In this document: piece after piece, positions 61,793 to 63,984 of the stretch
Layout of the letters: the number at the start of each line of letters is the position of its first letter
How positions within the stretch are numbered: the first letter of the stretch is position 1
DNA from: Verrucomicrobiota bacterium
Lineage (GTDB): Bacteria; Verrucomicrobiota; Verrucomicrobiia; Opitutales; Coraliomargaritaceae
Assembly (NCBI GenBank): GCA_039815375.1
Contig: JBCBZJ010000008.1
Location: 1-64,000 of the forward strand
DNA: 64,000 nt
Direction: 5' to 3'
The notes under the pieces: generated by a model
Database searches by the model: none
Seen by the model: only the letters and a program-made list of their open reading frames with translations
What the model was told of the DNA's origin: nothing
Translations under genes and position numbers: made by a program

Positions 61793-62206
61793 ATGTCGCT
61801 CACACTCGAAATCATTACACCTGACGAAAAGGTCTTCTCTGCGGAGGCCGATCAGGTCGTATTGCCCACTGAGTCCGGCGAAACCGGTATCCTTACCGGC
61901 CACGTTCCTTTGGTCACCAAGGTCAAAGCCGGTGAGCTCAAGGTCATCAAGGGTTCCGACACCGAATTCATCGCAGTCGACCACGGCTTCGCCAAGGTGC
62001 TCGGCAACACCGTTTCCGTGCTTACCGAAGCAGCTATTGATGTGAAGGATATCGACCTATCCGAACTCGACTCCGCACAGTCCCGTGCCGAATCCGCGCT
62101 CAAGGAAGCCGAAGCCGAAGGTATCGACCCCTTCGAACTCGAGCGCCTCGAAAAGAACGTCCAGTTCCTTCTCGCGCAAAAGATGGCCAAGGGCCGTCGT
62201 CGGTAA
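61793..62206 (+). CDS. atpC: ATP synthase F1 subunit epsilon
   Basis: LEIITPD, GE.GIL.GH.P, GFA. Confidence 0.96.
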   Translation: MSLTLEIITPDEKVFSAEADQVVLPTESGETGILTGHVPLVTKVKAGELKVIKGSDTEFIAVDHGFAKVLGNTVSVLTEAAIDVKDIDLSELDSAQSRAESALKEAEAEGIDPFELERLEKNVQFLLAQKMAKGRRR

Positions 62207-62260
62207 AACAGGCAGCAACTATTTTCAAAACGCGGTTTCGAAAGACACCGCGTTTTTTTG
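62149..62260 (+). repeat. Direct repeat copy A: atpC 3' end plus terminator
   Basis: Matches 63012-63067 and 63127-63173. Confidence 0.9.
62227..62259 (+). terminator. Intrinsic (likely bidirectional) terminator of the atp operon
   Basis: AAAACGCGGT-TTCGAAAGAC-ACCGCGTTTTTTT. Confidence 0.85.
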
Positions 62261-62263
62261 TGG

Positions 62264-62340
62264 GGTAGGGACGCCTGCCCTCAGGCGTCCGGTTTCGTCA
62301 AACAAGAATCGGCGGACGTGTGAGGGCACACGTCCCTACC
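62264..62340. repeat. REP doublet (GTAG family)
   Basis: GGTAG-GGACGCCTG-CCCT-CAGGCGTCC ... inverted GGTAG-GGACGTGTG-CCCT-CACACGTCC. Confidence 0.8.
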
Positions 62341-62749
62341 TTTCTATCAGCTTCAGGGCCTCCCGCGCATTCACGATTCGAACGCCCCCAACTTCTTTCA
62401 ATTTCAGCAAGTCGTTCTTATCACCCGTCACCAGCAAGTCTGCACCACCTTCGACCGCAGTTGCCAGTATCCAGTTATCATCCGGATCGGATGATTCGGT
62501 CCTCGGCTTAGCGATACCTATAATCTCCGCCATCGCATCGATATTCTCAAGCAGCAGACTCGCTTCCATCGGCTTGATGTAAGGCTTGAGCTTTTCATAG
62601 CCCAACACGCGCCGCAACTCATCGATCTGCCAGCTTGAAGTGACCAATTCAAACTGTCCGGCCTCCCATGCGAGGTAGAGCTGGTCGGGTGGAGTGTCTT
62701 TGGTCAGCAAGGCACTGACCAAGACATTCGTATCAAGCACCAGCTTCAC
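62336..62749 (-). CDS. PIN-domain toxin (putative TA toxin)
   Basis: VLDTNVLVSALL, EL.RVL...K, DPDD..IL..A..G.AD.LVTGDK.DLL. Confidence 0.92.
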   Translation of the reverse strand: MKLVLDTNVLVSALLTKDTPPDQLYLAWEAGQFELVTSSWQIDELRRVLGYEKLKPYIKPMEASLLLENIDAMAEIIGIAKPRTESSDPDDNWILATAVEGGADLLVTGDKNDLLKLKEVGGVRIVNAREALKLIER

Positions 62750-62969
62750 GCGACCATTCGATGGCTTCGCTAATGGCAGCTTCGATCAACTCGGGTGGAG
62801 TGTCTGCATTCCGCTCCTTCACAGTGTCCACCGTTTCCCGGAAAAGCGCCTGCCGCACCGCCTGATCGACGAACTTGGACAAATCGCCCTTCTTCGCCCC
62901 CCGCATCGCGAGATGCGTGCGCACCATCCGGTTCGTCTTTTCAGGAATGACTAAAGTCCATCGGCTCAT
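62733..62969 (-). CDS. Ribbon-helix-helix antitoxin
   Basis: RWTLVI...T...VR.HLA..G.KKGDLSKFV..AV; overlaps the toxin start. Confidence 0.85.
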   Translation of the reverse strand: MSRWTLVIPEKTNRMVRTHLAMRGAKKGDLSKFVDQAVRQALFRETVDTVKERNADTPPELIEAAISEAIEWSREAGA

Positions 62970-63064
62970 ATACGCATAATCATATAAGCATACAAAAGAA
63001 GTCAAGCCTCCCGAAAAGAACGTCCAGTTCCTCCTCGCGCAAAAGCTCGCCAAGGGCCGTCGCA

Positions 63065-63123
63065 GGTCGGGCTCGTTATCCTTAACGAGCCCGAGCGGAT
63101 TGATAAGGATATCAATCCCTACC
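63065..63123. repeat. REP doublet (variant stems)
   Basis: GGTCG-GGCTCGTTA-TCCT-TAACGAGCC and inverted GGTAG-GGATTGATA-TCCT-TATCAATCC. Confidence 0.72.
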
Positions 63124-63138
63124 AGATAAACTCATTTT

Positions 63139-63172
63139 CAAAAACGCGGTTTCGAAGGACACCGCGTTTTTT
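63139..63172. terminator. Second copy of the atp terminator, directly after the stop of the convergent methyltransferase
   Basis: AAAAACGCGGT-TTCGAAGGAC-ACCGCGTTTTTT. Confidence 0.8.
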
Positions 63173-63174
63173 GT

Positions 63175-63984
63175 TTAAGCGATGCAAGCGATTGATCGGA
63201 CCAACAGTTCAGTAGTTTTTCCGCGTCTGGCGGAATCTGAAGCTAAGACAGTTGCTCTAGAGAGTGAATCTTTTATCCAACAGGTATTACCGTATAAATT
63301 TCTTACGGCTGCGTGATCTGCGTTAGATATAACTATTTTTGCCCCAGATTCAGCAAGTTGAGTTAACATGTTTGCTAAGCGTTCTTGATCTTCCCAAGAG
63401 AAAATCCGCTCGTTGTATTTTACGAAAGCGTTGTTATTATGCTTAACTGTGTATGGGGGGTCGACATAGATCACGTCACCTTCTTTGTAATGGGATAGTG
63501 TGACCTCAAAGTCATCGTTGATGAAAGTCACTCCTTTTAATGCTGACGAAATTGCTGAAAAGTCATCATCCGGTAGCAGAACAGTATTTTTAGTTCCTTT
63601 GGGCACATTGAATTCTCCTCGGAGGTTTACTCGGTATAACCCATTAAAGCATGTTCGATTTAAATAAATCATTCGGGCCGCTTGTGAGTAAATGCCTCTT
63701 GGAGCATTAGATCTTACCTGATAATAATAGCTATCTGAGTGTTTCTCGGCATGCGCCTTAAGATGCTTTCTTACCAAAGTTGGATTATTCTTTAGCGCTA
63801 AGTAAGTGTTGATAAGCTCCTGGTTATAATCACCTAGAATACCTTTAGAGGGAAGCACGGTGAAAAAAACAGCCCCACTGCCAACAAAAGGCTCAATGAA
63901 CCGGCCACTAAACTCGGGAATGAGTTCGCGATGGTTCGACATTAACCAGCGCTTTCCCCCTGCCCATTTGAGAAATGGCTTCAC
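63175..63984 (-). CDS. Dam-family (D12 class) N6-adenine DNA methyltransferase
   Basis: KPFLKWAGGK, EPFVGSGAV, YLNRTCFNGLYRVN..G.FNVP, DPPY; visibly AT-richer than the flanking genes. Confidence 0.93.
   Translation of the reverse strand: MKPFLKWAGGKRWLMSNHRELIPEFSGRFIEPFVGSGAVFFTVLPSKGILGDYNQELINTYLALKNNPTLVRKHLKAHAEKHSDSYYYQVRSNAPRGIYSQAARMIYLNRTCFNGLYRVNLRGEFNVPKGTKNTVLLPDDDFSAISSALKGVTFINDDFEVTLSHYKEGDVIYVDPPYTVKHNNNAFVKYNERIFSWEDQERLANMLTQLAESGAKIVISNADHAAVRNLYGNTCWIKDSLSRATVLASDSARRGKTTELLVRSIACIA

Follow-up and report, generated by a model that had tools for sequence, protein, structure and literature searches.

Insertion with long target duplication was reportedly first described by Nobusato et al. 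in 2000. The minimal mobile elements of Neisseria represent a related arrangement, in which a slot between conserved genes is variable. As presented in PMC2853133 (Furuta, Abe and Kobayashi, 2010), long target duplications are known for restriction-modification genes, occur mostly in competent species and in some cases have repeats overlapping the 3' ends of genes, their mechanism being untested. In E. coli, re-circularised DNA entering by a single crossover gave gene-end duplications of 109–950 bp around the cargo, and joints formed by homology-facilitated illegitimate recombination (HFIR) measured 3–10 bp in the experiments described in PMC3240628. For toxin–antitoxin (TA) pairs, TA-only chromosomal islets without mobility genes that spread by recombination of the flanking core genes have been proposed, as outlined in PMC13617665. 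How orphan TA pairs reach chromosomal sites without a mobility gene is an open question. Here we describe a locus in a Verrucomicrobiota bacterium where a putative TA pair stands between two copies of the end of atpC, and we compare it with these systems.

Results and Discussion

The window, that is the whole stretch of 64,000 nucleotides that was analysed, is C59:1-64000 of the 3.56-Mb source genome (G000), and the locus is the end of its atp operon (Table 1).

Table 1: Features at the end of the atp operon (positions in the window).
Feature	Position	Strand	Support or remark
atpC (F1 epsilon subunit, 137 aa), which closes the atp operon	61793..62206	+	PF02823, E 1e-25
Tail A, last 18 codons of the functional atpC	62149..62203	+	
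Terminator A, hairpin and T run	62222..62258	+	fold -15.9 kcal/mol
REP doublet of family 1, GGTAG-tagged, native	62264..62340	.	33 hits in genome
Putative toxin of the PIN family, 137 aa	62336..62749	-	PF13470, E 2.9e-19; PIN_3/TIGR00305 over cut-off
Putative RHH_6 antitoxin, 78 aa, overlapping the toxin start	62733..62969	-	PF16762, E 2.7e-16
-35-like box of the TA promoter	63000..63005	-	promoter role presumed
Tail B, second atpC end, 5'-truncated, allele-like	63012..63066	+	21-nt perfect block at 5' edge
REP doublet of family 2, 60 bp, in frame	63064..63123	.	2 hits in genome
Terminator B	63136..63172	+	fold -16.4 kcal/mol
Dam-family adenine methylase	63175..63984	-	PF02086; TIGR00571; second gene of the block with DGQHR (TIGR03187); 42% GC

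The initial annotation had reported that the last 18 codons of atpC and the terminator behind them recur downstream. This is the case: tails A and B are identical at 50 of 55 bp and lie 863 bp apart, and the two terminators are 92% identical at a distance of 914 bp. Using BLAST against the 3.56-Mb genome, the match between the tails reached E 5.5e-16 and the next one E 0.12, and a third copy of the tail was not found. As already recognised, the differences (CTT/CTC, ATG/CTC, CGT/CGC and CGG/AGG) are synonymous or a conservative M/L exchange. Three of the four changed codons of tail B are synonymous and the fourth gives leucine, the majority residue among relatives; judged from these codons, both tails look like functional alleles from different lineages.

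Between the tails we find, in agreement with the first description, a GTAG-tagged hairpin doublet, which we take to be a REP/REPIN repeat like the one behind tail B, and a reversed RHH-PIN pair. PIN and RHH are the only genes of the 863-bp unit, which contains no mobility gene. Tail B is followed by the REP doublet of family 2, the codons AGA TAA, terminator B and the reversed Dam-family methylase. The joint to tail B is located 6 bp beyond the -35-like box of the TA promoter. All five homologous TA loci have the TTGAC of this box, and the similarity between them stops there. GCCTC stands 5' of the repeat in both copies, with an offset of 2 nt, and may be compared with the 3–10 bp microhomology of HFIR. 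Over 63064-63129, the REP doublet of tail B is in frame and would add 20 residues ahead of AGA TAA. A stop codon may formerly have been supplied here by a GTAG that mutated to the first GTCG of the doublet, and the second tail of a relative (G059, see below) ends with AGG TAG. Searching the locus against Rfam gave two sub-threshold chance matches and nothing else.

The RHH-PIN pair is an overlapping operon with the antitoxin first, which fits the type II RHH-PIN layout. Reading the sequence of the PIN protein reveals D6, E44, D91 and D110, presumably the acidic residues with a role in PIN toxins. Its stop codon TAG sits within the GGTAG of REP family 1, as had been noticed before, and PIN homologues end at most one residue from the same length, so the REP appears to have landed at the natural end of the toxin. 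A homologous TA pair is present in five of 101 family genomes, with G004, G095 and G097 having it at unrelated sites, and the closest homologues are titled Puniceicoccaceae or Verrucomicrobiota. In the protein tree the pair of the source genome groups with that of G004 (93/91, below the starred threshold) and the DNA tree is unresolved, so one or two origins of the two atpC cases described here are both compatible with the trees. Near the pair of G004 (L077:2458-2739 / L101:4136-4362) there is a tRNA-Pro with a second copy of its 3' end (42 nt) at a distance of 126 bp. From a screen of 80 PIN-homologue loci for repeats, with inspection of nine of them, gene-tail brackets around distant PIN pairs in other phyla were identified at L154, L112 and L116. 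Other candidates were set aside: at L110 and L139 repeats bracket the TA genes, yet they are not clear gene ends, at L173 the repeat does not enclose the PIN gene, and at L191 it does not come from a host-gene tail.

Downstream of tail B follow dam, a gene for a 775-aa DGQHR protein, AbrB-PIN, DUF6364-like-PIN, mscS and a phasin-like gene. The reversed cargo that the initial annotation placed behind a further REP doublet is present, but it is a two-gene block of dam and DGQHR (C59:63175-66308) running past the window (C59:63981-66308), and the REP doublet belongs to a family unrelated to the first. The serial array of tail, REP and cargo units that had been envisaged from this is not found at atpC, where there are two tails in all and the further TA pairs carry none. 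These pairs, AbrB-PIN and DUF6364-like-VapC, are also reversed (C59:66561-67879, L001:5062-6380), and the same slot contains a 21-bp tandem repeat (L001:4841-4885). The DGQHR protein (TIGR03187, with a weak match to DpdB) is encoded in an operon with the Dam-family methylase, making the two a candidate restriction-modification-like defence.

The slot that separates atpC from the phasin-like gene is indeed a hotspot of turnover, as had been supposed, and often contains TA genes. It measures 96 bp in another species of the same genus (G005), about 190 bp at L046 and L073, 1.7–2.1 kb in G002, L040, L049 and L054, and 6.8 kb in the source genome. According to translations, TA-type genes follow atpC in G012, G014, G017, G023, G065 and G079, and they are also present at L047, L052 and L054. 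For G012 (L036:1-400, C29), an antitoxin and a PIN gene begin ~50 bp past the atpC stop; this assembly breaks exactly at the atpC tail, which hints at strain variation there. In G065 (L099) the start of the atpC terminator (27 nt, 96%) recurs ~1.6 kb past the atpC stop, after a 494-aa gene and without a coding tail. A literature search found no paper naming atpC as this kind of insertion site.

The search pattern for the tail allowed mismatches, as the tail of G059 has a Pro codon. This sensitive pattern matched 81 of 101 family genomes, and a true second copy was detected in the source genome and in G059 alone. G059, which belongs to another genus, shows the order atpC, terminator, PIN-RHH (68% identity), promoter, a decayed tail of ~145 bp and terminator. 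Its second tail starts ~18 bp from the TA -35 box, compared to 6 bp in the source genome, where the tail is 55 bp long. Over the same L/I-A-Q-K codons an identical block of 12 nt (source genome) and 27 nt (G059) is found. Despite the same anatomy no REP was detected at the atpC locus of G059; this and the natural length of the toxin argue against the role that had been assigned to the REPs. None of 38 metagenome contigs with atpC has a copy of the tail. We also used an HMM that finds both tails in the source genome and in G059 and is weak in distant families. Among the 354 matching genomes of the order (401 in total), 17 gave two matches, and no convincing second tail elsewhere in the order was obtained; 14 second matches that were re-searched had E values of 0.007–0.048 and lie away from atpC. 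Three double matches were discarded: in G392 both lie at contig ends, the second match of G012 is a 55-nt contig overlap instead of a second tail, and the second oxidoreductase match of G004 (for the gene described below) is likewise a contig overlap.

The two REP doublets belong to unrelated families with 33 and 2 hits in the genome, respectively. Family 2 has 14–30 hits in each of G014, G046, G061, G064 and G066, whereas the source genome has this doublet alone, and the dam-DGQHR block behind it has 42% GC versus 51% for the genome. With a slight lean, tail B is probably the incoming tail, as its REP family is otherwise absent from the genome; a native family 2 that is old and has since died out would also fit. 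The opposite polarity implied by the initial annotation, with tail A incoming and tail B displaced, is doubtful in view of this foreign REP family and the cargo of low GC behind it. For G059, the 5' portion of its second tail matches atpC of the source genus at 70 of 111 positions versus 62 of 111 for its own atpC. These comparisons make a foreign origin of the second tail, at least in part, probable for both genomes. Two Y1_Tnp genes of the source genome (C44:6166-7227, C62:25638-26727) are flanked by ~30-bp terminal inverted repeats, which are not REPs.

In agreement with the initial report of a cassette without integrase, we found no tyrosine recombinase on contig C59 and no serine recombinase (PF00239) in the source genome. 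The genome has 13 tyrosine-recombinase matches, which could act in trans. A tblastn search with eight tyrosine recombinases against 313 kb behind atpC from 58 loci, 40 of which had at least 3 kb downstream, gave no match, and no recombinase was identified with Pfam among 60 ORFs behind atpC. The downstream search that had been suggested thus returned neither further atpC tails nor an integrase. Moreover, an integrase-bearing element at atpC was found in none of the 81 matching family genomes, the 354 matching genomes of the order and the 38 metagenome contigs. Collections of phages, plasmids and viral contigs contained neither the atpC tail nor its junction, the exact junction giving 0 viral matches; two pattern matches in viral contigs lie outside any atpC and are due to chance.

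A genome-wide scan for orphan downstream tails showed that the scar is not restricted to atpC, which speaks against the specific targeting of this gene that had been proposed: besides atpC, it identified a phytoene-dehydrogenase-like oxidoreductase, SNF2 and HU. The oxidoreductase tail (54 nt, 91%) stands around a reversed Fic gene, the SNF2 tail (~200 nt, decayed) around the remnant of a reversed nucleotidyltransferase, and the HU tail (102 nt plus terminator) around a Gp49-HTH pair, other ORFs and an IS. Read from the alignment, the HU tails differ by six changes, all of them synonymous, and they are thus alleles rather than decayed copies. Control probes from heads, middles and quarters of genes gave one to four orphan matches each and none from recognisable host genes, atpC itself being masked by an overlapping ORF in this control. 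The tandem copy of the HU tail occurs in the source genome alone among 19 matching genomes, and the oxidoreductase tail is multiplied in seven of 68 matching family genomes, with spacings of 194–6607 bp and 5' edges at about 0, -4, -33, -34, -36, -55 and -59. No site-specific recombinase was found with Pfam in 15 cargo ORFs at the oxidoreductase. In G017 a spare oxidoreductase tail is located on another contig, ahead of the same genes that succeed it in the source genome, indicating that a tail and the block behind it can move together. G063 and G064 (L202:800-1380, L203:727-1356) have three tandem units of ~198 bp consisting of the oxidoreductase tail and a hairpin-like repeat, which look like an amplified tail-plus-repeat. 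Unrelated to the atpC tail, the source genome also contains arrays of short ORFs in one orientation with recurring repeats between them, resembling integron cassettes (C2:6000-10000, C12:143000-145500, C58:8000-11000).

The sequencing runs that match the locus are marine metagenomes. One contig from run X1 spans both tails with 0 differences; X1 is a possible source of the genome and hence not independent. Run X2 bridges tail A to the PIN end. From run X4 we obtained a 301-nt contig (depth 4.4) that comprises the start of the antitoxin, the promoter and the 5' part of tail B with five differences and from there on follows tail A and terminator A with two differences, 12 letters fitting both sides. 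A 30-nt overlap of contig ends suggests that it runs on into REP family 1. The initial annotation had asked for an excised circle of ~860 bp, and the X4 contig has the expected junction of tail and TA unit with the other downstream tail; it may also represent a second atpC tail in the chromosome of a related organism. Since other X4 contigs are 89–97% identical to the region of the locus, the second tail of a relative with recent exchange is favoured over the circle.

Any explanation of the arrangement needs a non-homologous joint, from the TA promoter to the middle of atpC, and recombination between diverged alleles, and host recombination together with one illegitimate joint gives both. We therefore regard it as probable, with moderate confidence, that the locus arose by homologous recombination of the host combined with an illegitimate joint beside the TA promoter. 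Homologous recombination would join two related chromosomes on one side, and the illegitimate joint would form just outside the TA promoter, either from a linear fragment by HFIR or from a fragment that closes into a circle and enters by one crossover; both routes should yield the same product. Addiction would keep only those products that retain the antitoxin promoter, and such selection for antitoxin expression may explain the position of the joint close to the -35 box in both atpC cases. The spare tail could then serve as a short recombination arm, allowing the DNA behind it to be swapped between lineages. Tail B, its REP and the dam-DGQHR block probably arrived by such a swap, and the X4 contig suggests later swaps at the spare tail, while the REPs would be passengers that landed at stop codons and terminators.

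The variable length of the tails, the recurrence at other genes and the absence of an integrase count in favour of host recombination. ComEC and DprA are encoded in the source genome, but 10 and 11 of 14 control genomes, respectively, have them too, and they are hence not diagnostic of competence. Three observations point in the other direction: both atpC cases share the L/I-A-Q-K block, as a fixed site-specific crossover would give; the repeats of atpC and HU are perfect over their first 21 and 12 nt, respectively, and diverge synonymously thereafter, which is att-like; and at the oxidoreductase three edges fall close together, between -33 and -36. Perfect blocks of such length are short for RecA. 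It also counts against our explanation that HFIR, in the work reported in PMC3240628, mostly deletes instead of duplicating.

The principal alternative is a decayed integrative element of the CIME type. An element with an integrase would have replaced the 3' end of atpC, as e14 did at icd/icdC, with the TA pair being kept and the unit perhaps still being excised in trans. The anatomy resembles that described for icd/icdC (PMC13626634) and for the CIMEs at rpmG, rpsI, fda and rplL (PMC7563491), TA pairs outlast their carriers according to PMC13617665, the perfect 5' block precedes synonymous divergence with a crossover window common to both atpC cases, and an attP would be expected to look like the X4 contig. 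We still consider this origin rather unlikely, because no integrase-bearing element at atpC turned up in the family, order, metagenome, phage, plasmid and viral collections searched, the edges are variable and the targets are several and unrelated. In addition, the second tail of G059 extends 5' of the shared block by ~110 bp of atpC-like sequence, which is closer to the source genus (70/111 vs 62/111).

Duplication of the target site or a local tandem duplication within one chromosome, with neutral decay of the second copy, would account for the clearly decayed second tail of G059 and SNF2 copy as well as for the three near-identical 198-bp tandem tail units of G064. It is quite improbable here in view of the three synonymous codons out of four and the leucine common among relatives, the HU copies differing synonymously alone, and the REP family of tail B being otherwise absent from the genome. 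Mobilisation of the cassette by a REP/RAYT system (TnpA-REP) cutting at the REP doublets appears very improbable. A REP doublet does stand behind each tail, the genome has the two Y1_Tnp genes, and in X4 both tails seem to enter REP family 1, as far as contig overlaps suggest. However, G059 has the same anatomy without a REP, the ends of the cassette are not at the REPs, the doublets are of unrelated families, the terminal inverted repeats of both Y1_Tnp genes are unlike either REP, and the other four TA homologue loci have no match to REP family 1. A chimeric assembly, in which two strains or species would have been fused at the atpC tail, is scarcely credible, for although the genome probably derives from a metagenome and tail B, REP 2, dam and DGQHR are covered by none of the independent runs X2-X5, the X1 contig (from the possible source) spans both tails without differences, X2 connects tail A with the PIN end, X4 bridges the junction of promoter and tail, and G059 repeats the anatomy.

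Host recombination with one illegitimate joint also allows a wider and more tentative reading. It is possible that TA modules in this marine family act as recombinase-free homing units, which would acquire the 3' tail of a conserved host gene, use it as a portable second homology arm and insert additively behind that gene in any relative irrespective of the downstream sequence, with addiction fixing the joint at the antitoxin promoter. If true, this would be a general route for orphan TA pairs to colonise chromosomes without transposases or integrases.

Conclusion

The locus is best read as an insertion with long target duplication whose cargo is a TA pair; it is not a dedicated system targeting the ATP synthase. 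It shares with the cases in PMC2853133 a presumably addictive cargo, variable direct repeats of more than 30 bp and a small insert without mobility gene: the repeat (55 bp plus terminator, two copies) is unique in the genome, the insert is below 20 kb, and the repeat length varies. An empty slot of 96 bp occurs in G005, which is another species of the genus rather than a conspecific genome. It differs in that the cargo is a type II-like TA pair instead of a restriction-modification system, the methylase lying outside the repeats, so the link to DNA breaks suggested in PMC2853133 is not directly applicable. Furthermore, each repeat consists of a coding end of a core gene and its terminator, and the two copies have diverged like alleles; this suggests two donor lineages instead of the copying of one target.

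One homologous and one illegitimate joint are also the features of the HFIR and single-crossover products in PMC3240628. Those were formed with engineered plasmids in E. coli, where HFIR deletes, and the tails here are shorter (37–200 bp) and 80–91% identical. With e14 at icd/icdC and the CIMEs as described in PMC13626634 and PMC7563491, the locus has in common a functional gene end, cargo and a truncated allele-like end as well as accretion at the 3' ends of conserved genes, but these elements, or the ones they descend from, possess a site-specific integrase and recombine at a fixed att site. No integrase was found here, and the two atpC cases share a window over the L/I-A-Q-K codons while differing in their 5' edges. 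The doublets are REP/REPIN-like as GTAG-tagged, intergenic, multi-copy hairpins, but here they would be passengers, and no matching RAYT was identified. The variable slot between atpC and the phasin-like gene recalls the Neisseria minimal mobile elements. As a tiny TA unit without mobility genes, the locus resembles the TA islets of PMC13617665, from the description of which it differs by the duplicated host-gene tail as right-hand arm. To these systems it adds a TA cargo, allele-diverged tails and joints that vary across the family, which together favour host recombination and make the idea testable.
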